This document shows, in pieces, positions 5,797-43,969 of a stretch of DNA of 43,969 nucleotides. This DNA comes from Bacteroidia bacterium (GTDB lineage Bacteria > Bacteroidota > Bacteroidia > UBA10329), in assembly GCA_047611425.1 (NCBI GenBank), contig JBLFWJ010000003.1, positions 1 to 43,969 on the forward strand, read 5' to 3'. The number at the start of each line of letters is the position of its first letter. Position 1 is the stretch's first letter. The notes beneath the pieces were generated by a model that worked only from the letters and a program-made list of their open reading frames with translations, had not been told where the DNA came from and did no database searches. Both the position numbers and the translations under genes were made by a program.

Positions 5797-6339
5797 ATGG
5801 AAATAACAAAAACTAAAATTGAGGACTTACTTGTATTAACACCGTGCGTTTTTAAGGATGATAGAGGATACTTTTTCGAATCCTTTAGCAAAAAAGTTTT
5901 TGGTCAAGCTGGAATAACTGCGGAGTTTGTCCAAACCAATGTCTCAATGTCCTGTAAGGACGTAATTCGTGGTTTACATTTTCAAAAGCCTCCATTTGCT
6001 CAAGGTAAACTGGTGAGCGTTTTGCGAGGAGCAGTTTTGGATGTCGCGGTGGATCTTCGAAAAAGCTCCCCGACATACGGGCAATATCATATCGAAGAAA
6101 TTAGCGAATACAATAAGAAGGTATTCTGGGTACCTCCTGGGTTTGCACATGGCTTTAGAACGCTAGAAGACAATACTCTGTTCCACTATAATTGTACTGC
6201 GGGCTACGACAAAGAATCCGAAGGTTCAATTCTCTGGAATGACCCAGATTTAGCTATTGATTTTGGAGATGTTTCCCCACATTTATCAGAGAAAGATAAA
6301 GTGGGAACTCTGTTTGCCGATTTCAATTCACCGTTTTAA
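5797..6339 (+). CDS. rfbC: dTDP-4-dehydrorhamnose 3,5-epimerase
   Basis: Motifs DDRGYFFESF, RGLHFQ, QGKLV, DVAVDLRKSSPTYG, PPGFAHGF, WNDPDLAI and LSEKD. Confidence 0.95.
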   Translation: MEITKTKIEDLLVLTPCVFKDDRGYFFESFSKKVFGQAGITAEFVQTNVSMSCKDVIRGLHFQKPPFAQGKLVSVLRGAVLDVAVDLRKSSPTYGQYHIEEISEYNKKVFWVPPGFAHGFRTLEDNTLFHYNCTAGYDKESEGSILWNDPDLAIDFGDVSPHLSEKDKVGTLFADFNSPF

Positions 6340-6377
6340 GGGAAAGTGGGTACCTTCGCGGCCCGCAAGGCCGAGCA

Positions 6378-7475
6378 ATGTTTCTTGACAATCCAACCAA
6401 TCTACTCATAGTTTACCTCGTTTTTGGGTTTTGTACTGTGCTGTTCTCGTTTTTGATTAACGGACTGTTTCTGAAATTTTCTCGCACACTTGGCGTGAAA
6501 GACCAAGAAGACAACTTAGTTCGTTGGAGCGCAACTTCTAAGCCTGCACTCGGAGGCATTTCATTCTACATACTTTTTCTTTTTGCCATTGCTTGCTACT
6601 CAATGCTTTTTGAAGCAGTCAGCTACATGAATAACGTAGTTCAATTTTTAGGAGTAATGGCTGCATGCTCTCTGGGTTTTGTAGTTGGACTAGCGGATGA
6701 TGCATACAATACAAAGCCCTTCTTGAAATTCTTCGCGCAATTTACTTGCGCAATAATCTTGATAAGCACTGGCACCTATATCAACATGAGTGGCTATCTG
6801 TTATTCGATTATTTCATAACTGTTTTTTGGATTGTTGGTCTTATGAATTCGATTAACATGATGGATAATATGGATGGAATAACCACCAGTCTATCCATCT
6901 CAATTGTTCTTGCAGGCCTATATGTTCTAATTACTAAACATCAAGTTCGCAGCATCTATTTCATCACTCTGGTTGGAGTCCTTTCTGGATTAATCGGTTT
7001 TCTGTACTATAATTGGAACCCAAGTAAAATGTACATGGGCGATTCTGGAAGCCAATTCTTAGGCGTGTTTCTGGCAGCCATAGGAATATTGTTTTTCTGG
7101 AATTTTAATTCTGCACCTGATTTTAGAATTCAAACTAGACAATTCATTATTCCACTTTTGATCTTCATTATTCCAATCATTGACACTACCACGGTTACCG
7201 TCAATAGATTGATGAGAGGGCAAAGTCCTTTTGTTGGAGGTAGGGACCACACTACCCACAACCTGTCCTACATGGGGTTATCAGATAGACAAGTTGCCCT
7301 AGCCTTTTTTGGACTATCAATGATGTCACTCGTTTTGTTGGTGGTAATTGACAAGTTCATTCCTCAGGATGTTTGGGATTACAAACATTTTGCACTTTTC
7401 CTTGGTTACTTCGTTTTACTGTTCGGTTTCCTTTTTGGAATTACGAAGATCAAAAGGGTTCCTAAAAAATCATGA
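6378..7475 (+). CDS. Undecaprenyl-phosphate HexNAc-1-P transferase (WecA/MraY-like family)
   Basis: Polytopic membrane protein with GLADD, NSINMMDNMDG, YNWNPSKMYMGDSGS, DT and DHTTH motifs. Confidence 0.85.
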   Translation: MFLDNPTNLLIVYLVFGFCTVLFSFLINGLFLKFSRTLGVKDQEDNLVRWSATSKPALGGISFYILFLFAIACYSMLFEAVSYMNNVVQFLGVMAACSLGFVVGLADDAYNTKPFLKFFAQFTCAIILISTGTYINMSGYLLFDYFITVFWIVGLMNSINMMDNMDGITTSLSISIVLAGLYVLITKHQVRSIYFITLVGVLSGLIGFLYYNWNPSKMYMGDSGSQFLGVFLAAIGILFFWNFNSAPDFRIQTRQFIIPLLIFIIPIIDTTTVTVNRLMRGQSPFVGGRDHTTHNLSYMGLSDRQVALAFFGLSMMSLVLLVVIDKFIPQDVWDYKHFALFLGYFVLLFGFLFGITKIKRVPKKS

Positions 7476-8521
7476 TTAAAAGAAAGTTCAGTGTATTAGT
7501 CGGCCTACTGGTCGTATTGGGGCTTGTTCAACTTTTCATTTTTAGCTCTGTTGAAAAAGGATCTGAGGACAAAGAGTACCAGCAGGCTTTCAACCAAGAC
7601 TATCGAATTTATACCCTCAATATCCCTGCGGATCTTGAGTTCTGTGGTGAGCAAATTCCTGTTCACGACATTGATATTCGGGAACGCTTAGACCGAGAGT
7701 TGTTGGTTAACACGTATTGGCAGAGTAACTCATTGCTGTACATAAAGCGCTCAAAAAAGTGGTTCCCAATCATTGAACCGATTCTTGCAGCCAACGGAAT
7801 TCCTGATGATTTCAAGTACTTGGCTTTAATAGAGAGCGGATTGACCAACGTGGTGAGCCCTTCTGGAGCAACCGGTTTTTGGCAATTGATGAAGGAGACG
7901 GGAAAAGAGTTTGGTTTAGAAGTAAACAAGGAAGTTGACGAACGGTACAACTTAACTCTTGCGACAAAGGCAGCGTGTAAATATTTAAAGCAAGCCTACA
8001 GCCGATACGGAAACTGGACCTTAGCAGCTGCTAGCTACAATATGGGCATGAACGGTGTAGACCGTCAGCTCAAGCGTCAGCAAGCAGATAGCTATTACGA
8101 TCTTTTGTTGAATTCCGAAACTTCACGTTATGTGTTTCGTGTAATTGCAGCAAAAGAGATTCTCACCAACACAACTAAATACGGATTCAGGTTCCGCGAA
8201 AAAGACCTCTACCCTACTCCACAGGTACAGTCCATCAAAGTGGATACCACAATTGACAACCTTGTGACCTTTGCCAAGGCGAATGATGTGAGCTATAAAA
8301 TTCTTAAAATCTTCAACCCGTGGTTGAGGCAAACCAATTTGCCTAATTCTTCAGGAAAGCAATATTCTATTGATTTTCCAACTGCAGGTTATTTCGATCA
8401 TCATAGTAATGGCCAAGAATTAAACCCAGCGTTTGTGGATAGCTTGGAATCGATTGCCGATTCCGTTATCGTTTACCCTACCGATACGCTTATCGCAGAA
8501 CCCAGTTCTGAGAATGAGTAA
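7472..8521 (+). CDS. Lytic murein transglycosylase (SLT/MltD-like), with a LysM-like C-terminal part
   Basis: YLALIESGL (catalytic Glu), SGATGFWQLM, VDER, AAASYNMG and ETSRYV; N-terminal TM segment. Confidence 0.88.
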   Translation: MIKRKFSVLVGLLVVLGLVQLFIFSSVEKGSEDKEYQQAFNQDYRIYTLNIPADLEFCGEQIPVHDIDIRERLDRELLVNTYWQSNSLLYIKRSKKWFPIIEPILAANGIPDDFKYLALIESGLTNVVSPSGATGFWQLMKETGKEFGLEVNKEVDERYNLTLATKAACKYLKQAYSRYGNWTLAAASYNMGMNGVDRQLKRQQADSYYDLLLNSETSRYVFRVIAAKEILTNTTKYGFRFREKDLYPTPQVQSIKVDTTIDNLVTFAKANDVSYKILKIFNPWLRQTNLPNSSGKQYSIDFPTAGYFDHHSNGQELNPAFVDSLESIADSVIVYPTDTLIAEPSSENE

Positions 8522-11375
8522 AAAGAAGTCGGGATTCGTTGCTCAGCCCTACTTGGAAGTGAATGGCGCTCGCGTTCACAACCTTAAGAATATTGACGTA
8601 AAAATTCCTCGATATAAACTAGTGGTAATCACTGGATTGAGCGGAAGCGGAAAATCCTCTTTAGCATTCGACACGATTTACGCTGAAGGACAAAGACGTT
8701 ATATAGAAACGTTTTCGGCCTATGCCCGTCAATTTATGGGCAATCTAGAACGGCCAGATGTAGACAACATTACAGGCCTAAGTCCAGTAATTAGCATAGA
8801 GCAAAAGTCTACCAATCGTAGCCCGAGATCTACGGTAGGAACAATTACTGAGATCTACGATTTATTCCGTTTGATGTACGCTCGGGCATCCATTGCCTAC
8901 AGCTACAACACTGATGAGCGTATGATCAAGCATACGGATGATGACATGCTTCAAATTCTGAAAGATGAATTTGAAGGCAAACGCATTATTCTGATGGCAC
9001 CGGTGATAAAAGGCCGAAAGGGACATTATCGCGAGCTTTTCGATCAATTCAGAAGACAGGGTTTTCAACGGGTTCGAGTTGATGGAGAAATTCTAGAATT
9101 GGACTCAGAGATTAAACTGGACAGGTACAAGGTTCATGATATTGAACTGGTTACAGATCGAGTTAAGGTTGATGAATCCAATCATAAAAGACTTCGCGAT
9201 TCTTTGAACTTGGCAATGAAGCATGGAAAGGGATCCCTCCTAATCCAGGACCATGAAACCGGTGAAACACGATTTTTGAGCCGAGCGTTGATGTGTCCAA
9301 CCTCAGGCATCGCCTATGATGAACCTCAACCTAATTTGTTTTCTTTCAATTCACCCTATGGTGCATGTCCAACCTGTAACGGGTTAGGAAACGTGTCGGA
9401 GATTGACAGAGAGAAGATCATTCCGAAAACCACGCTTTCTATTGCCCGTGGTGGCATTGCTCCTCTGGGAGAGCAAAAGAATACTTGGATTTTTCACCAA
9501 CTCGAGGCAATTGGTGATAAGTATGATTTCAAATTAAACACACCCATCAAGGATATTTCGGAAGAAGCTTTGAATGTGATCCTTCAGGGATCAAACGAAG
9601 TTTTCAAGGTGAAGCAGAGTGAAGGATCCACATCAAGCAATGTATCTCTGTCCTTTGAAGGAATTATGAGCTTTATCTCTCGCCAAGCGACAATGTCAGA
9701 CTCCGCTCGATTGGAAAAATGGGCTAAAGGATTTACCTCTAGGAAAGAGTGCGACAACTGCAATGGGGATCGGCTTAAAAAGGAATCACTCTACTTTAAA
9801 GTAGCAGATAAGAACATAGCCGAAGTCGCTAGAATGGATCTTCAAGCTTTGGGAGATTGGCTAGCCACGGTTGAAGAGAAACTGGATGAACGGCAATTGC
9901 TAATTGGTCATGAGATTTTAAAGGAAATTCAAACACGGCTGCAATTCTTACTAGATGTTGGGCTTGAATATTTGGCACTAGACCGACCAAGCCGATCACT
10001 TTCTGGTGGAGAAGCTCAAAGAATAAGATTGGCTACACAAATTGGTTCCGAATTAGTTGGTGTGCTCTACATCCTAGATGAACCAAGCATTGGATTGCAT
10101 CAACGAGATAATCAACGCTTAATTAAAGCATTGCAAAAACTACGTGACACGGGTAATTCCGTTATCGTGGTTGAGCATGACAAGGACATGATGATGGCTG
10201 CAGATCAGGTCATTGATCTTGGCCCAGGCGCTGGAATTCATGGTGGTGAGTTGGTTGGGCAAGATGTTGCCTCTGCCCTGCCCCATGAACGGTCTCTAAC
10301 CGCTGGTTACTTGAGTGGCGGAATGAGTATTCCATTTAGAAAGAAGCCTCGGAAAGGAACTGGAAAGTTCCTAACCCTCAAAGGTGCTACTGGCAACAAT
10401 CTCAAAAACGTTGACCTCAAACTTCCTTTAGGAAAGATGATTTGCGTTACTGGCGTTTCTGGAAGTGGAAAATCAAGCTTGATTAACAGCACCTTGCATC
10501 CAGTTCTATCCAACGAATTACATCGTGCGGAAAGACAATATCTTCCGTACAAAAAACTGGTTGGTCTTGAAAATCTAGACAAGGTAATTGGTATAGACCA
10601 AACTCCAATCGGACGAACACCTAGATCAAACCCAGCAACATATACAGGTGTGTTTTCGGATATACGCGCCCTATATGCTTCGTTACCTGAAGCACAGATT
10701 CGAGGGTACAAAGCAGGCCGGTTTTCTTTCAACGTAAAGGGTGGTCGATGTGAAGAATGCAGAGGTGCTGGTGTTCGAACCATCGAAATGAATTTCTTGC
10801 CAGATGTACATGTTCATTGTACAACCTGCAATGGCAGAAGATTCAATCGCGAAACACTTGAAGTTCGATTCAAAGGAAAATCGATTTCTGACTTGCTTGA
10901 TATGAACATTGAGCAAGCCATGGAATTCTTTGAAGGCATTCCAAGCATCCTTCGAAAGATTAGCACCATAAATGATGTTGGTCTTGGATACATCAGTCTA
11001 GGCCAGAGTTCCACAACCCTGTCTGGTGGTGAAGCACAGCGAATAAAGTTGGCTTCTGAACTGTCCAAGAAAGACACTGGTCAGACCCTTTACATTCTGG
11101 ATGAACCAACAACGGGCCTTCATTTCGAAGATGTTCGTGTTTTACTTGGTGTACTAGACAAACTTGCAGATCGCGGCAATACTGTTTTGATAATTGAACA
11201 TAATATGGATGTAATCCGCTCAGCAGACTACATCATCGATATCGGAAAAGAAGGTGGTGAGCGTGGTGGTGAAATAATTGCCCAGGGATCACCGTTAAAG
11301 GTTGCGACTGAGACAAATTCCTACACCGGTGTTTTTCTAAAAGAAGAATTCGATTCGTTAGGAATCAAAATCTAA
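8514..11375 (+). CDS. uvrA: Excinuclease ABC subunit A
   Basis: GARVHNLKN, two Walker A motifs ([18 protein letters not shown]), two LSGGEAQR signatures and CxxC zinc fingers. Start at ATG 8514. Confidence 0.97.
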
Positions 11376-39545: not shown

Positions 39546-40100
39546 TTGAGTTCAATCCAAGAGAAGCACAAACCATATCAATCTTTAGATGGGCTAGTCA
39601 CCGCCCTCTCTGACGAAGAGCCGTCCAAATACACCGACATAATCCGTTCAATAAACTTGCCCGTAAGCGCATTTGAGAACTGTTGCTCCTGGTCGGATAA
39701 GGGCTACACCCGAAACTGCATTCTTGATACCGACAAATTTGAATTGATCCTACTTTGCTGGGAAAAAGGTCAAGTCACCCCTATCCACGATCACGGAGGC
39801 GAAGAATGCTGGGTTCATATTATTCAAGGTAAATTTCGAGAGACGGTTTATAACGTGGATGATTTAGGTGAACTAAATGTGGTTAAGACGAACATTTCAA
39901 ACACAGGTGATGTCACGTACATGTCTGATTTTATGGGCTGTCACCGTTTAGAAAACTTGTCTGATACCAGAAGTTTGTCTTTACATCTTTATGCAAAGCC
40001 AATTCGCAATTGCAATGCATTTGATGAGGGGCTTGGGAAATTCGTCCGTAAAGATTTAACCTACAATACCGTCTTCGAGTTTGAAGATGAATTAACGTAA
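39546..40100 (+). CDS. cdo: Cysteine dioxygenase (cupin, Arg-type)
   Basis: YTRN, LLCW..GQ.TPIHDH, HRLEN and SLHLY (3-His iron site, Ser-His-Tyr triad). Confidence 0.88.
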   Translation: MSSIQEKHKPYQSLDGLVTALSDEEPSKYTDIIRSINLPVSAFENCCSWSDKGYTRNCILDTDKFELILLCWEKGQVTPIHDHGGEECWVHIIQGKFRETVYNVDDLGELNVVKTNISNTGDVTYMSDFMGCHRLENLSDTRSLSLHLYAKPIRNCNAFDEGLGKFVRKDLTYNTVFEFEDELT

Positions 40101-40110
40101 TTGCAACTGT

Positions 40111-41514
40111 ATGTCTGATATAAGTAGTGACCTGGCTCTATTCAACGAGCTGGCTGAAGTCTTACTCAATGAAGAAGAGACCCATCCGGTAGCCGATCGA
40201 ATAGACTCCAACAAACTTTACGATTCTATAGACCTCTCGCTTAATGCATCTCCGATGGTTGATAGCGAGTTTAAGACAGTACTGAAAGATGTACTTGTCT
40301 CAACTCCGAAAACAGCCACGAAGCTATTCTTCAACCAACTTTTTGGAGGCCGTCAAGGAAAAGCTGTCTTAGGTGATTTACTTGCCGTGATGCTTAACAA
40401 CAGTATGTATACATACAAAGTTGCAGGCCCTCAAGTGGGTATTGAGCAGGAGATTATTAGGCAATGTTGTAATCTGGTTGGATACGGTCCTCAAAGCAAT
40501 GGCACCTTCCCTACAGGTGGTTCCATGAGCAATTACATGGCCGTGATTATGGCTCGAGATGCAAAAGACCCTGAGTGCAGAACTGCCGGAATGACAAAGC
40601 CATTGGTCATTTACACTTCCAAGGAATCACATTACTCTAATGCGAAAAATGCAAGCTTCGCTGGAATTGGAAAAAACAACATTCGATATATACAGGCTGA
40701 TTCCAATGGGCGAATGATTCCAGAGAAATTGGAAGCACAAGTCATTAAGGACCTACAAGAAGGATTCATTCCTACTTATGTAAATGCCACTGCGGGCACA
40801 ACTGTTTTAGGGGCTTTCGACCAGATAGACAAGATTGCAGACATCACCGAAAAGTATAAGATATGGCTTCATGTAGATGGCGCCTATAGCGGAAGCGTGA
40901 TCTTCAGCGATAAGTACAAACACCTTGTAAAGGGAATAGAAAGATCTGATTCATTCAGCTTCAATGCCCACAAAATGCTTGGAACACCAATGACGTGCTC
41001 TACCATTTTAGTGAAGGATAAAAAGCAGCTTCATGATTCTTTCAGCAACGAAGCCGATTACCTGTATCAAACCGATGGTGACGATTTCAATTTAGGTAAG
41101 ACCTCTTTCCAGTGCGGAAGAAGGAATGACGCTTTGAAATTCTGGACGCTTTGGAAATCTGTTGGAACCAACGGCTTAAAGCAGATTGTAGATCAGCAAT
41201 TTGAATTAGCGGATGTGGCTCGTGAATACGTGATAAATAATCCAGACTATACAGTCTATAGTTTCGATGACTCCATCTCCATCTGCTTCAATTATAAGGA
41301 CGTTGATCCGATGGACCTTTGTACGGCATTGTATGAGAATCAAATAACGGTTGTCGGTTTTGGGTCCTTTAATGAAAACACGTTTGTTCGACTGGTTACC
41401 ATCAATGCGAATAATACAAAGCAGGACATCTTGAACTTCTTTGCAGTTCTAGAGGAATTTGCTGATAAGACCCCAAGCCTGAAAACGTTAGAGGAAGTCA
41501 GGTCTTCCCTTTAA
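40111..41514 (+). CDS. Group II PLP-dependent decarboxylase, cysteine-sulfinate decarboxylase-like
   Basis: FFNQLF, GGSMSN, SHYS, TAGTTVLGAFD, WLHVDGA, NAHK (PLP Lys) and QCGRR; F-x19-S-x-Y selectivity motif. Confidence 0.85.
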   Translation: MSDISSDLALFNELAEVLLNEEETHPVADRIDSNKLYDSIDLSLNASPMVDSEFKTVLKDVLVSTPKTATKLFFNQLFGGRQGKAVLGDLLAVMLNNSMYTYKVAGPQVGIEQEIIRQCCNLVGYGPQSNGTFPTGGSMSNYMAVIMARDAKDPECRTAGMTKPLVIYTSKESHYSNAKNASFAGIGKNNIRYIQADSNGRMIPEKLEAQVIKDLQEGFIPTYVNATAGTTVLGAFDQIDKIADITEKYKIWLHVDGAYSGSVIFSDKYKHLVKGIERSDSFSFNAHKMLGTPMTCSTILVKDKKQLHDSFSNEADYLYQTDGDDFNLGKTSFQCGRRNDALKFWTLWKSVGTNGLKQIVDQQFELADVAREYVINNPDYTVYSFDDSISICFNYKDVDPMDLCTALYENQITVVGFGSFNENTFVRLVTINANNTKQDILNFFAVLEEFADKTPSLKTLEEVRSSL

Positions 41515-41547
41515 ATCATGTGCTTCTTTAACGTAACTTCGTCTCCG

Positions 41548-41937
41548 ATGAAACTGAGGCAATCGTTAAGAAATATGTCATTGCTGCTTCTAGCGGCAGT
41601 TTTTTTCTTGGCGTCTGGTGTCGTTTCAATTCACGATCATGAACATTCCCATGACCATGCAGTTTCTCATTCGCAAGAGGATGAGGCTGATGCTTGTCAC
41701 AGATCCATTTATCACGGTGACCTGAATCTTGGCTGTGAGCATAAAAGCCATGTTCATGACTCTGACCTTGATTGTCAACTCTGTGATTTCATCAACAATC
41801 GATGCGATCAAGACTTGGTTCAAGCCGAATCGCTTTTGTCATTTTCGGGTAATAATGAGAACTCTTTCTCCCCGCTTCAATCACGCTCTTTTAATCAAGA
41901 TTACGAGCACGGGCAAAGAGGGCCCCCGCGAGTGTAG
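41548..41937 (+). CDS. His-rich DUF2946/CruR-like leader protein with CxxC and C-terminal RGPP
   Basis: Hydrophobic N-terminal segment; HDHEHSHDH, CH...H....CEH..H.H and CQLC; ends QRGPPRV*. TAACTTCG (41534-41541) supports the ATG at 41548. Confidence 0.75.
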   Translation: MKLRQSLRNMSLLLLAAVFFLASGVVSIHDHEHSHDHAVSHSQEDEADACHRSIYHGDLNLGCEHKSHVHDSDLDCQLCDFINNRCDQDLVQAESLLSFSGNNENSFSPLQSRSFNQDYEHGQRGPPRV

Positions 41938-42001
41938 TTGACTAGAATTATTTCCATTTTCTAATCTCGATGATCAGAGGTCATCGACTACACTTATTAT
42001 A

Positions 42002-42571
42002 ATGAACACACTTAATATTTTGAAGTGGGCTATGCCCGCAATGGTTGTTCTTGCATTTTCCTCATGCGAGAAAGAAGACCCAATTATCCCAAACGAGGAA
42101 GAATTAATCACCACTGTTCAACTCACCCTATCTCCCAGTGGATTAGGGCCTGACGTGGTATTCGAATTTCAAGACCTTGATGGAGATGGAGGTACTGAGC
42201 CAATTATTACTGTACCAACTTCATTAATTGCAAATCACACCTACACCGGATCTATAACGTTTCTAAGCGAGATTGAAACTCCGGCAGAGGACATAACAGC
42301 GGAGGTAAATGATGAAGCCGAAGACCATCAAGTGTTCTATCAGGTTTCTGGTGGATTGAACTCAACCTTGACCTACACAGATACCGATGCCAATGGAAAC
42401 CCAGTTGGTTTGGCTATTCACCTTGAAACGGGCGATGCATCAACCGGACAATTAACGATTACACTTAGACATGAACCAGATAAATCTGCATCAGGCGTTT
42501 CCGAAGGAGACATAGTCAACGCAGGTGGCGAAACTGACATTGAAGTGACCTTCGATGTTTCGATTCAGTAG
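42002..42571 (+). CDS. Acidic lipoprotein of the type often encoded next to Bacteroidota metal TBDRs
   Basis: Lipobox FSSC; NEEELITT, DLDGDGG, DITAEV..EAEDHQVFY, D.DANGNPVGL, LRHEPDK and GGETDIEVTF. Confidence 0.75.
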   Translation: MNTLNILKWAMPAMVVLAFSSCEKEDPIIPNEEELITTVQLTLSPSGLGPDVVFEFQDLDGDGGTEPIITVPTSLIANHTYTGSITFLSEIETPAEDITAEVNDEAEDHQVFYQVSGGLNSTLTYTDTDANGNPVGLAIHLETGDASTGQLTITLRHEPDKSASGVSEGDIVNAGGETDIEVTFDVSIQ

Positions 42572-43969
42572 GGAACTCCTTCTGAATTTACTAGTGCCTT
42601 TCTCACTGGTTGGCCAGCAATGCGATATTTCCATTACTGGCCAACTGGTGGATGAAAGCACTGGCATTCCTATGTCTTATGCAACGGTTTTTATTGAAGA
42701 ATTGCAGACCGGTGTTGCCTCTGATGAAAACGGTGAATTCACCTTAAGCAACCTCTGTCCAGGTGGTTATCACATCAAGTTCAACCATATCGGTTGCGAA
42801 ACAAATACACGTTTCATTCAGCTTGAAGCTGACACCACAATACTGATCACTATGCACCATCACAACGAGTTGGTGGATGAGGTTGTGGTTCATGATCATT
42901 CCTCGGAACATGAACAGGTCGTAAGCGCTACAATCCGTTCTTCCGAGATCTCGGAAATGTCAAACCGCGACCTGACCGACCTTCTCGATCAGGTAAGTGG
43001 TGTCAGTGGTTTAAAAAGCGGTGCCGGAATTTCAAAACCGGTTGTACATGGTATGTATGGCAATAGATTGGTTATTCTAAACAATGGCATTGCACAGGCT
43101 GGGCAGCAATGGGGGAATGATCATGCGCCAGAGATCGATCCTTTTGCGGCAGGTCACATTTCAGTTGTGAAAGGTGCAGGAGCCCTCGCCTACCCTGGCT
43201 CGGCATTAGGTGGAGCCGTGCTGATAGAACCCGACCCCATGCCAACCGACCCTCATATTCATGGTCTAGTCGGTTACATTTTTCAAACCAACGGATTGGG
43301 ACATACCCTTAACGTGCGTCTTGAGCAGAATGCCAAGTGGGCAAGTTGGAGGGTGAACGGTACAACAAAACTTATTGGGGATCGAAGCGCTCCCAACTAT
43401 TTGCTTACCAATACAGGCAAACGGGAGTACGACCTTTCTGCCCAATTGGAAAAACGGTTCTCATCCAAATGGAGTGGCAATCTGTATTACAGCCTATTCA
43501 ATACACGTATTGGTATTCTAAGAGGATCCCACATTGGGAACCTCACCGATCTTGAAAATGCCATTGGCAGAGATGAGCCTTTGTTTACACGAGACACATT
43601 CTCTTATCACATTCAAGCACCCATGCAAAATGTGATGCACCATTTGGCCAAGCTCGAATTCTCAGGGATACTTGATGAACACAATAGCATTAAACTGAAG
43701 TACGCTCTTCAATACAACGACCGTAAAGAATTCGATGTAAGACGTTCCGGACGTTCAGATATTCCCGCGTTAAGCCTTGGCCAGTCTGACCATTTTATCG
43801 AAGGACAGCATCTCTATCTATCAGATAATGACTTGACCCTGAGGTCAGGTATCCAACTGCGATTGATAGACAACACCAATAATCCTGAAACGGGCGTATT
43901 GCCTTTGATCCCCGATTATCGGTCGTACGAGGTTGGCGCTTATTTCATAGCTCAGAAGGAATGGAAACG
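42555..43969 (+). CDS. TonB-dependent receptor with N-terminal CarboxypepD_reg-like domain (3' truncated), probably for a metal
   Basis: Not in the ORF track (no stop in the window). ATG 42555 reads MFRFSRELLLNLLVPFSLVGQQC..ITGQLVDESTG.PM..ATV; MHHHNELVDEVVVHDH; plug SKPVVHGMYGNR...GQQWGNDHAPEID...VVKGA.ALAY...ALGG. Confidence 0.88.
   Translation, partial: MFRFSRELLLNLLVPFSLVGQQCDISITGQLVDESTGIPMSYATVFIEELQTGVASDENGEFTLSNLCPGGYHIKFNHIGCETNTRFIQLEADTTILITMHHHNELVDEVVVHDHSSEHEQVVSATIRSSEISEMSNRDLTDLLDQVSGVSGLKSGAGISKPVVHGMYGNRLVILNNGIAQAGQQWGNDHAPEIDPFAAGHISVVKGAGALAYPGSALGGAVLIEPDPMPTDPHIHGLVGYIFQTNGLGHTLNVRLEQNAKWASWRVNGTTKLIGDRSAPNYLLTNTGKREYDLSAQLEKRFSSKWSGNLYYSLFNTRIGILRGSHIGNLTDLENAIGRDEPLFTRDTFSYHIQAPMQNVMHHLAKLEFSGILDEHNSIKLKYALQYNDRKEFDVRRSGRSDIPALSLGQSDHFIEGQHLYLSDNDLTLRSGIQLRLIDNTNNPETGVLPLIPDYRSYEVGAYFIAQKEWK

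Follow-up and report, generated by a model that had tools for sequence, protein, structure and literature searches.

Nascent peptides that sense metals allow a metal to be read without a dedicated regulator protein, and they have been recognised only recently (CruR in 2022, CutF in 2023). To our knowledge, the metal-sensing leaders tested to date are all proteobacterial and respond to copper only. In Bordetella pertussis, the DUF2946 protein CruR (Bp2923) carries RAPP three residues from its C-terminus, preceded by a CXXC motif at a spacing of 45 aa that is conserved within 1–2 residues, and copper control of a TonB-dependent transporter needs both motifs (PMC9426467, Roy et al. 2022). CutF of Rhodobacter capsulatus, called a member of the DUF2946 family in 10.1101/2025.02.05.636593 was at first put forward as a copper chaperone (PMC9426467). 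It requires its signal peptide and opens a stem-loop in which the ribosome-binding site of the following gene is concealed; copper strengthens its stall, and the gene under its control encodes a multicopper oxidase for detoxification (PMC9973294, Öztürk et al. 2023). The same survey describes 5,334 CutF-like proteins in 29 clusters, 19% of them from Bacteroidota, with TonB-like proteins as their second most common neighbours. For arrest peptides of the RAPP/RGPP class, RGPP gave the strongest arrest in ApcA, ApdP and SecM contexts in reporters, and the peptides described as tested in that study include no Bacteroidota member (PMC12992588, Fujiwara et al. 2025). Bacteroidota are also not among the phyla that Roy et al. 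name for Bp2923 homologs (PMC9426467).

The window analysed here is a stretch of 43,969 nt from a Bacteroidia bacterium. An initial annotation had singled out a 129-aa ORF with an export or transmembrane segment, many His and Cys residues including CQLC, and RGPP two codons ahead of the stop. It had compared this ORF with stalling RAPP/RGPP motifs and with the copper-responsive CruR system (CxxC plus RAPP, before a TonB-dependent receptor), in agreement with PMC12992588 and PMC9426467, respectively. We recovered the ORF with each of these features, the export signal being a prediction (Table 1). An alternative in-frame ATG upstream, at 41518, would give 139 aa; the start at 41548 is favoured because the close homologs P0003 and P0004 begin at the equivalent position. 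K2, R4 and R8 precede a 17-residue hydrophobic stretch, residues 2–33 form one helix in the AlphaFold2 model (pLDDT 94–97 over the first 20 residues), and all aligned homologs have a hydrophobic N-terminal block; the export signal is putative, judged from the sequence and the modelled helix. No Pfam family matched the leader at E ≤ 1, and an NCBIfam scan named none. It is selected by all four filters used for CutF-like proteins, namely a length below 150 aa, PP among the final 15 residues, a signal at the N-terminus and a following gene no more than 1,000 nt away on the same strand (PMC9973294), with 129 aa, PP at 126–127, a hydrophobic N-terminus and a 64-nt gap to the lipoprotein gene. A C-terminal sorting signal was considered and rejected: the 2–5 residues after RxPP comprise neither a hydrophobic helix nor a basic tail.

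Table 1 Features of the leader locus, in window coordinates
Feature	Position	Strand	Basis
Leader ORF, 129 aa + TAG stop	41548..41937	+	ATG 41548, TAG 41935–41937; homologs found
Hydrophobic export or membrane-anchor segment (putative), residues 10–26, MSLLLLAAVFFLASGVV	41575..41625	+	Read from sequence
His/Cys-rich putative metal-sensor segment, residues 29–79, CQLC end at 41773–41784	41632..41784	+	Alignments A1, A2
Linker, 44 aa, variable in sequence, fixed in length	41785..41916	+	Spacing counts, unconserved A1/A2 columns
RGPP, putative arrest motif, R124 G125 P126 P127	41917..41928	+	Codons AGA GGG CCC CCG
Two-codon tail (R, V) + TAG stop	41929..41937	+	Read from sequence
5′ arm of predicted long-range stem: last two codons, stop and 5 nt beyond	41929..41942	+	RNAduplex
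Inner hairpin (TCGATGA-loop-TCATCGA) within the 64-nt gap between leader and lipoprotein genes	41967..41987	+	Predicted fold
3′ arm of predicted stem, −19 to −6 from lipoprotein ATG (putative translation-initiation region)	41983..41996	+	RNAduplex
Lipoprotein, 189 aa, lipobox FSSC then EKEDP	42002..42571	+	Lipobox
TonB-dependent receptor (TBDR), N-terminal 471 aa, cut by contig end	42555..43967	+	CarboxypepD_reg, His-rich linker, Plug

Loss of RGPP from orthologs had been named beforehand as an observation that would speak against arrest; the motif was instead retained. R124, P126 and P127 are invariant in alignment A1, and R[AG]PP stands 2–5 aa ahead of the stop in all 16 loci of related genomes. 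A profile of the family, which neither Pfam nor NCBIfam names, matched 805 cluster representatives at E ≤ 0.001, and among the best 149 of these, 144 have R[AG]PP within 12 aa of the C-terminus. The variants in this set are RAPP (87), RGPP (57) and KGPP (4), and tails of two (78 proteins), three (35) or four residues (15) dominate. The Arg, Gly and Pro codons of the motif vary from locus to locus, indicating that selection acts on the peptide. Across the whole 3.22-Mb genome, neither RGPP nor RAPP occurs in the 2,388 ORFs of at least 150 aa (906,747 residues), in which the comparison tetrapeptides AGPP and AAPP occur six and five times. Only one of 18,261 ORFs of at least 40 aa ends in R[AG]PP followed by at most 8 aa: this leader. 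Such exclusion matches the proteome-wide avoidance of RAPP and RGPP reported by Fujiwara et al. (PMC12992588). The leader has three sequence features of the RAPP/RGPP class, a C-terminal motif, a conserved motif position with drifting flanks and an N-terminal hydrophobic segment, and, in common with ApdA, ApdP and ApcA, combines small size and a putative secretory or membrane nature with RGPP near the C-terminus. The genes for those peptides lie ahead of secDF or yidC, and the peptides report on how well Sec or YidC is working, whereas the leader precedes a metal importer and a lipoprotein and, unlike the characterised members, has an N-terminal Cys/His cluster.

The 12 His residues of the leader are at positions 29, 31, 33, 35, 37, 41, 51, 56, 65, 68, 70 and 121, and the five Cys at 50, 63, 76, 79 and 86, with CQLC at 76–79. 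H35, D48, C50, C63, H65, H68, C76 and C79 are invariant in A1; in A2 (137 sequences), C50, H65, H68 and C76 are invariant and H29, E46, H51, H56, C63 and C79 are at least 90% conserved. Cys86 is not conserved. Lewinella copies have CQWS in place of CxxC and retain RGPP, so the CxxC is not indispensable. The linker has no secondary structure in the AlphaFold2 model (pLDDT 60–73). From CxxC to RxPP, the 16 related loci have 44 aa (12 loci), 45 (3) or 43 (1), and the best 149 of the 805 profile matches include 89 proteins with 43 aa, 22 with 44 and 14 with 45. The spacer had initially been put at about 35 aa, or one tunnel length, and both figures need correction. CQLC and RGPP are actually 44 aa apart (a count that starts at Cys86 gives 37 aa), and the ribosome exit tunnel holds roughly 30–40 aa. 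CxxC would lie just beyond the tunnel exit at the stall.

The DUF2946 profile PF11162 (gathering score 23.7 bits) did not match the leader, and a six-frame search of this genome with it gave no match. Sub-threshold matches to PF11162 were given by 32 of 137 family members, the best at E 4.7e-4; every other family was matched by three members at most. Two other Bacteroidota ORFs score with both models: L031 has 23.8 bits with PF11162 and 29.9 bits with the family model, and L035 has 21.3 and 27.7 bits. DUF2946 clusters make up 10 of 30 ESM Atlas neighbours. True DUF2946 members were obtained from megaplasmid records. Comparison by hhalign of the family with three of these only gave 3.8% probability and E 0.011, with little aligned beyond CxxC and RxPP; the family model scored the Cupriavidus protein (L064) at 9.8 bits and did not list the two Ralstonia proteins. 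In the latter, CxxC and RxPP are 46 and 45 aa apart (hand count). pSymA, pSymB and a Paracoccus plasmid gave no PF11162 match, tblastn of plasmids with a Ralstonia DUF2946 protein found Ralstonia only, and a protein search that used the DUF2946-like ORF of locus L030 as query yielded a single protein without a name.

The leader is therefore not recognised as Pfam DUF2946; its architecture is nonetheless the same. CruR and the leader are both small proteins, encoded before a metal-ion-type TonB-dependent transporter, in which an export signal (putative in the leader) is followed by a CxxC, a linker predicted to be unstructured that sets a constant distance (44 aa in the leader, 45 aa in CruR), and R-A/G-P-P 2–3 residues ahead of the stop. 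The two differ in the sensor (four conserved Cys and a His-rich run here, one CxxC in CruR), the motif (RGPP against RAPP), the intergenic region (A/T-rich with 64 nt here, G+C-rich with 162 nt in CruR) and the lipoprotein gene that, unlike in CruR, separates leader and receptor. With CutF the leader shares a short intergenic region and a structure, predicted here, that involves the downstream start region; CutF differs in controlling a detoxifying multicopper oxidase rather than a metal importer and lipoprotein, and in its proline-rich motif, described as a C-terminal PPP repeat (10.1101/2025.02.05.636593) rather than RGPP. We conclude that CruR and CutF, leaders that sense copper, probably have a relative in this leader from Bacteroidota.

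Downstream, the lipoprotein and TBDR that had been noted are both present. The lipoprotein belongs to no Pfam or NCBIfam family, has 40–61% identity across 15 loci and contains invariant DxDGDG, H109, H157 and GETDI. AlphaFold2 models it as a beta-sandwich, which had no match in the PDB by Foldseek at E ≤ 0.001. VIA-align returned generic Ig-like sandwiches at Z ≤ 7.4 (RhoGDI, glycosidase domains, S-layer domains; CrdA at Z 5.9), and the fold accordingly points to no ligand. The acidic stretch that follows the lipobox Cys is similar to signals for lipoprotein export reported in 10.1101/2023.03.17.533168, and the protein may possibly serve as a surface lid of the receptor. The receptor matches PF13715 (CarboxypepD_reg, 3.6e-18) and PF07715 (Plug, 9.3e-13), with a conserved His-rich linker between them (42852–42914). 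For a full-length ortholog, the closest solved receptors are ZnuD (9.8e-17) and then OprC (3e-6). We rejected assignment to the ZnuD-type family NF038289, with which the ortholog scores 119.7 bits against a cut-off of 950 bits; ZnuD is simply the nearest solved relative. The order of these relatives, zinc then copper, keeps copper in play beside the zinc, nickel or cobalt proposed initially, and we consider zinc or copper the most likely metals. In all 17 extended loci a receptor-like ORF follows the leader on the same strand (identity confirmed by Pfam in three scanned loci and the window), and in 15 of them a lipoprotein-like ORF does so too, while the genes upstream differ between loci.

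The leader stop and the lipoprotein start are predicted to pair over the arms listed in Table 1. RNAduplex gives this duplex −16.9 kcal/mol, against −8.5 ± 2.4 for shuffled partners, 2 of 500 of which reached it; among natural 34-nt windows, 112 of 6,252 (1.8%) did, which makes the stem only moderately unusual. The stem is also part of the minimum-free-energy fold (z = −2.88). In the sister genus, a comparable pairing of different sequences is predicted between TTCATGAT at the stop and ATCATGAA at the start; where a locus has TTCTTGAT, a matching ATCAAGAA is present (L020, L022), and relatives have two covarying hairpins at the place equivalent to the inner hairpin. In 9 of 11 loci, shuffles matched the observed duplex energy in 0.4–9% of trials. 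The stem is undetectable in L017, L025, L028, L029 and L053–L056, where shuffles match the energy in 14–93% of trials. The TCATGA palindrome could recur for unrelated reasons, from a Ser-TGA end and an ATG-AAA start. Rfam had no match in 41300–42300 at E ≤ 1. Two metagenome scans for DNA of closer relatives (62–64% identical), undertaken to test covariation of the stem of the window, found none. Among the sequencing runs searched for the locus, DNA runs matched and no RNA run did; contigs of four DNA runs across 41500–42100 were identical to the window, without variation.

We think it fairly likely that the leader is a cis-acting arrest peptide of the RAPP/RGPP class governing a metal-uptake module of lipoprotein and TBDR, unmasking of the start region included. 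The comparative predictions that we examined for an arrest peptide, on motif, spacing and synteny, were all borne out in the related sequences. The proposal starts from the anatomy of the leader, the conservation of those three features, the absence of RGPP and RAPP from the other ORFs surveyed in this genome and the pairing predicted between stop and start; for stalling, metal binding, metal identity, the direction of the response and RNA unmasking we infer the behaviour from CruR and CutF. On translation, the N-terminal hydrophobic segment would target the leader to the membrane, and the ribosome would stall with the two Pro codons (41923–41928) in the P and A sites. Residues 29–79 would then lie 47–97 residues from the peptidyl-transferase centre, far enough for the His/Cys segment to have emerged from the exit tunnel and to have crossed the membrane at least in part. 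Without metal, the stall would persist and the ribosome would cover the last codons and the stop (about 41929–41938), a stretch that could then not pair with 41983–41996; the lipoprotein start would stay open and the uptake genes would be made. With plentiful metal, the four conserved Cys and the His residues would bind it, and the segment would compact, pull on the nascent chain and release the arrest. Termination two codons on would let the stem close, and downstream expression would drop. The direction of this response is a guess, since metal can strengthen the stall in CutF (PMC9973294).

The output could instead resemble that of CruR, the stalled ribosome shielding the transcript from Rho and its release leading to Rho termination in or after the leader, with the stem incidental. 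This we hold to be possible but unlikely. It is the sole output known from experiment where a leader with CxxC and RAPP precedes the gene of a TonB-dependent transporter (PMC9426467), and a scan found no terminator-like site or intrinsic terminator between leader and lipoprotein gene. The distant members L028 and L053–L056, with intergenic regions of 126–503 nt and no detectable duplex, also recall the 162 nt of CruR. Against it, the 64-nt intergenic region of the window is A/T-rich (12 C, 8 G) and would be a poor Rho loading site, failing the criterion of a C-rich, unstructured region (PMC9426467), and the predicted pairing of stop and start is seen in two genera, each with sequences of its own.

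That the product is a stable exported or anchored metal-binding protein, such as a periplasmic acceptor or chaperone, in which RGPP has a structural or interaction role, appears improbable. The His/Cys segment is conserved far beyond the needs of a bare leader and is modelled in parts at pLDDT about 85, an export signal is predicted, and CutF itself was at first proposed to be a copper chaperone (PMC9426467). However, the last 50 residues are unstructured, variable and fixed in length and end in an invariant RxPP by the stop, which fits a ruler with an arrest motif better than a folded domain, and RGPP and RAPP are avoided elsewhere in the genome. A dual role as leader and functional protein is compatible with these observations.

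We also regard as quite improbable a polarity like that of CutF, in which metal would strengthen the stall and induce downstream genes for handling excess metal or a metal-bound substrate. CutF, as a DUF2946 member, acts in this way (PMC9973294, 10.1101/2025.02.05.636593), and the short intergenic region with its stem is closer to the CutF layout than to that of CruR; yet the genes controlled here are an importer akin to ZnuD and OprC and a lipoprotein, uptake systems of a kind normally repressed by their metal, and copper relieves the CruR leader ahead of its TonB-dependent transporter (PMC9426467). The layout of a small ORF rich in Cys and His ahead of a TonB-dependent receptor is known from methanobactin operons, but a precursor of a ribosomally made Cys/His-rich metallophore imported by the receptor is extremely improbable: only the lipoprotein and receptor are conserved nearby, with no genes for modifying enzymes, the conserved residues fall within the first two-thirds of the protein, the rest of which varies except for RxPP, and there is an N-terminal hydrophobic anchor.

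Within the reading as a cis-acting arrest peptide, a more specific version can be put forward as speculative. The family may be a natural force sensor that responds not to copper but to another metal, likeliest zinc: a Cys4/His mini-domain of about 50 residues, exported during translation, would fold around the metal at a constant 44 residues from RGPP and pull the ribosome free, and the stall would block pairing of the stop and start regions. This would make it the first zinc-responsive arrest peptide and the first such switch worked out in Bacteroidota. Bacteroidota largely lack Shine-Dalgarno-led initiation, and the mechanism, if true, would show arrest-peptide control of a downstream gene where Shine-Dalgarno sites are rare. 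It would also extend metal-sensing nascent peptides to another phylum and perhaps another metal, and the conserved ruler would offer a compact natural system for metal-driven co-translational folding forces. The family merits study for its Cys4/His sensor, richer than that of CruR, for the shared 43–45-residue ruler and for a receptor closest to the zinc importer ZnuD. Published surveys already describe leaders ahead of TonB-dependent receptors, and the list of Öztürk et al. includes Bacteroidota (Öztürk 2023, PMC9973294; Fujiwara 2025, PMC12992588); the present leader is therefore a new, uncharacterised case of a known type. Such ORFs should be annotated as regulatory leaders rather than as 'hypothetical protein'.

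Only 33 nt separate the leader of the window from an unrelated gene that precedes it on the same strand, and no Bacteroidota-type promoter box was found there. The promoter scan also returned sigma-70 matches, which are not relevant to Bacteroidota. Among 15 relatives, 10 have a promoter-like box just ahead of the leader.

The 129-aa ORF upstream of the lipoprotein and receptor genes is a real and strongly conserved feature, and most probably works as an arrest leader with a regulatory role, like CruR and CutF. Membership of the arrest class, taken alone, can be held more firmly than this overall reading, the RNA step and the identity of the metal less so. Its family is unnamed and has a distinct sensor, possibly along with a distinct metal and output.

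The leader and its neighbouring genes
Feature	Position	Strand	Details
Cysteine-dioxygenase-type cupin, then PLP-dependent decarboxylase	39546-41514	+	Pfam PF05995 (1.3e-23), then PF00282 (1.4e-75)
Leader ORF	41548-41937	+	129 aa; ATG at 41548, TAG at 41935-41937
RGPP of leader	41917-41928	+	followed by R, V, stop
Lipobox protein	42002-42571	+	189 aa; 64 nt downstream of leader
TonB-dependent receptor	follows lipoprotein, runs off contig end	+	CarboxypepD_reg domain and Plug

The leader start is matched by the start of the close homologues P0003 and P0004; an in-frame ATG at 41518 would lengthen the protein by ten residues. The basic N-terminus (K2, R4 and R8) is followed by a 17-residue hydrophobic stretch and then by a segment holding 11 of the 12 His and all five Cys residues (C50, C63, C76, C79 and C86), with CQLC at 76-79. 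A stretch rich in Ser, Asn and Gln lies between this segment and RGPP. The initial annotation had the ORF, motif and context right apart from the spacer, which it put at about 35 aa; CQLC and RGPP are 44 residues apart. AlphaFold2, run on a 137-sequence alignment, modelled residues 2-33 as a single long helix and placed short helices in the His/Cys segment, while residues ~85-119 had no secondary structure (pTM 0.32, mean pLDDT 75.7). A terminator-like hairpin of nine pairs followed by a T-run is present at 41580-41600, within the codons of the hydrophobic segment, and may be a by-product of Leu, Ala and Phe codons.

A protein search returned five non-self homologues of 39-64% identity, each ending in RGPP plus 2-3 residues. 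Six-frame searching yielded matches in 16 of 61 genomes, own genome included, comprising 13/23 genomes of the same family and 2/37 of other families in the class. Both CxxC and R[AG]PP (RGPP in 15, RAPP in one) are present in every one of the 16 ORFs, separated by 44 (12 loci), 45 (three) or 43 (one) residues, with the motif two (four loci), three (11) or five (one) residues from the stop. In a 21-sequence alignment, H35, D48, C50, C63, H65, H68, C76, C79, R124, P126 and P127 are invariant and the linker columns are unconserved. The motif codons vary among loci (Arg CGC/AGA/AGG/CGA/CGG, Gly GGN, Pro CCN), and selection therefore acts on the peptide.

The profile of this alignment matched 805 of 1.84 billion representative sequences at E ≤ 0.001, 483 of them at E ≤ 1e-10. 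Of the best 149 non-query matches listed, 144 place RAPP (87) or RGPP (57) no more than 12 residues from the C-terminus; KGPP stands there in four, and in the remaining one RAPP is 17 residues away from it. Spacing from CxxC is 43 (89 proteins), 44 (22) or 45 (14). Loss of RGPP from orthologues, which the initial annotation had named as evidence against its proposal, is thus clearly not what is found. The KGPP carriers (P0020, P0088, P0136 and P0141) hold it at the same place, two residues before the end. In two Lewinella homologues (6001-6408 in both L053 and L054), CQWS replaces CxxC with the four-residue register kept, and the protein ends in RGPP plus three residues; the intergenic regions at these loci span 439-503 nt. 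Carriers also include Flavobacteriales MAGs and Roseivirgaceae. Across the phylum the distribution is patchy, with matches at E ≤ 1e-5 in 7 of 401 evenly drawn genomes when up to 10 candidates were scored per genome.

The motif is rare in this genome. Over the whole 3.22-Mb assembly (91% complete), the 2,388 ORFs of at least 150 aa (906,747 residues) contain neither RGPP nor RAPP, with AGPP occurring six times and AAPP five times. Only one of 18,261 ORFs of at least 40 aa, the leader itself, ends in R[AG]PP plus up to eight residues. This scarcity agrees with Fujiwara et al. 2025 (PMC12992588), who report that RAPP/RGPP are avoided proteome-wide and enriched where small secretory proteins end.

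The architecture is shared with CruR, the DUF2946 leader of Bordetella pertussis. In CruR, RAPP is described as standing three residues from the C-terminus, with 45 residues between it and a CXXC, a distance that varies by no more than 1-2. According to the same report, expression of the TonB-dependent transporter downstream is lost when RAPP is mutated, copper control is lost when CXXC is mutated, and lengthening the spacer by five residues strongly reduces that control; in the model given there, copper relieves the stall, permitting Rho-dependent termination (PMC9426467). CruR has been shown to arrest in vitro, the P and A sites being occupied by the Pro codons (Fujiwara et al., PMC12992588).

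The leader had no match in Pfam at E ≤ 1, and DUF2946 (PF11162) found no match in its genome and exceeded the cut-off in only 2 of 201 Bacteroidota genomes. Sub-threshold PF11162 matches were obtained for 32 of 137 family members (best E 4.7e-4), any other Pfam family being matched by at most three. We compared profiles using three true DUF2946 members (48.3, 36.2 and 75.9 bits) encoded on megaplasmids of Ralstonia and Cupriavidus. The hhalign comparison gave 3.8% probability and E 0.011 over 55 columns; the two CxxC motifs were aligned, as were RGPP and RAPP, with little beyond these. With the family model the Cupriavidus protein reached 9.8 bits and the two Ralstonia proteins went unlisted; the model does recognise two Bacteroidota ORFs that PF11162 scores too (L031, 29.9 bits; L035, 27.7 bits). 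DUF2946 clusters make up 10 of the leader's 30 nearest neighbours in the ESM Atlas (score 0.96). The leader family is thus of the same design as DUF2946, a likeness we claim for design and not for homology.

The leader also counts as "CutF-like" under the rules that Öztürk et al. 2023 set out (PMC9973294). Their set is given as 5,334 proteins, of which Bacteroidota contribute 19%, and TonB-like proteins rank second among the neighbours. The kind is already in print, a Bacteroidota share of that list included, and both surveys report enrichment of such leaders before TonB-dependent receptors (PMC9973294, PMC12992588). No tested Bacteroidota example was found in the literature library searched.

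Gene order was surveyed at 17 extended leader loci. In L017-L027, L053, L054 and L056, a lipoprotein-like ORF of 187-190 aa and then a receptor-sized ORF come after the leader, both on its strand, the receptor being cut by the contig end in L019 and its frame apparently broken in L054. L028 has the order leader, receptor, lipoprotein, and in L029 and L055 the receptor directly follows the leader. Upstream genes vary by locus. The cupin/decarboxylase pair, which could form hypotaurine or taurine from cysteine, is absent upstream of the leader in the relatives' extended loci; in the window 33 nt separate the end of the decarboxylase gene from the leader. Three loci (L017:3140-3900, L018:3585-4324 and L019:3800-4489) carry two extra small ORFs between leader and lipoprotein gene. 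One, of 56-59 aa, begins MK(D/E)xLSFYDVK(S/A)KSKFES; the other, of 117 aa, has no match in Pfam or NCBIfam. Ten of 15 relatives (within L003-L014) have a [TC]AnnTTTG box whose end is 5-6 nt from the presumed leader start codon (ATG, GTG or TTG) and upstream of it, the starts having been partly chosen by position. The box resembles what we take to be the Bacteroidota -7 promoter element, and its placement suggests that these mRNAs are leaderless or nearly so; none is present in 41250-41560 of the window.

Sequence just upstream of the lipoprotein ATG is predicted to pair with the final codons and stop of the leader, enclosing a 7-bp hairpin (41967-41987). The minimum-free-energy fold of 41890-42010 is -30.2 kcal/mol (z = -2.88; 1/200 shuffles as good). 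The duplex 41929-41942/41983-41996 has -16.9 kcal/mol, compared with -8.5 ± 2.4 for shuffled partners (2/500 reach the observed value), and 112 of 6,252 natural 34-nt windows of the contig (1.8%) are as good. In the sister genus the design recurs with other sequences: stop-side TTCATGAT pairs with start-codon ATCATGAA, a context retained at the start of the shorter extra ORF, and in L020 and L022 leader end TTCTTGAT is accompanied by ATCAAGAA before the start. Both-sided, compensatory change affects 11 of 20 predicted pairs in two internal hairpins there. The observed duplex energy is reached by 0.4-9% of shuffles in 9 of 11 sister-genus loci (L018-L024, L026 and L027) and by 21-29% in L017 and L025, these loci being related and so not independent tests. 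The duplex was not seen in the distant members L028, L029 and L053-L056, several of which have long intergenic regions.

By toeprint geometry, a ribosome whose P site is occupied by Pro126 is expected to shield the mRNA as far as ~12-15 nt past that codon. Stalled here, it would reach about 41935-41938 and cover most of the stem's 5' arm, so that the lipoprotein start region would be kept open, by the logic demonstrated for CutF, SecM and MifM. Output through a CruR-like Rho mechanism instead is about equally probable; no intrinsic terminator was found between the leader and the lipoprotein gene, and no Rfam family in 41300-42300 at E ≤ 1.

The four conserved Cys and several His residues of the sensor would fit Zn(II) or Cu(I) alike. 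Among solved structures, ZnuD (9.8e-17) and then OprC (3e-6), both metal-ion importers, come closest to the receptor in sequence; its NCBIfam scores fall far under every cut-off. Pfam confirmed the receptor architecture in all three orthologues scanned (L024, L028 and L029). Twelve orthologues, aligned over their full length, conserve Cys in the N-terminal domain and a His-rich linker, MHHHNELVDEVVVHDHSSEHE (42852-42914), between the CarboxypepD_reg domain and Plug. In L020, a gene near that of the receptor specifies a secreted (T9SS) protein that carries a plastocyanin/azurin-like copper-binding domain (7639-10098, Pfam). We rate Zn somewhat above Cu as the candidate metal, with Ni or Co also possible. 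Since the regulated genes encode an importer, as for CruR, the metal would relieve the stall and turn uptake off; CutF responds in the opposite direction, showing that the reverse is possible.

At 40-61% identity the lipoprotein exceeds the leader in conservation, and DxDGDG, H109, H157 and GETDI are invariant; Pfam and NCBIfam assigned no family, and no informative structural match was obtained. Its CEKEDP, following the lipobox Cys, is similar to acidic export signals described for surface "lid" lipoproteins of non-SusC receptors (10.1101/2023.03.17.533168).

Among other neighbours, L025 encodes a DUF4625 lipoprotein, and an ORF at L027:3-569 shares a similar N-terminus with the L020 plastocyanin-like protein. 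A 328-aa ORF (MYVKRNY...) lies downstream of the receptor in L022, L023, L024 and L026; the one copy scanned, from L024, is a bacterial bestrophin (PF25539, 2.4e-51). As annotated, the lipoprotein ORF overlaps the first ATG of the receptor ORF by 17 nt (42555-42571); translation of the receptor may begin further downstream, because the two genes stand ~25-55 nt apart in relatives.
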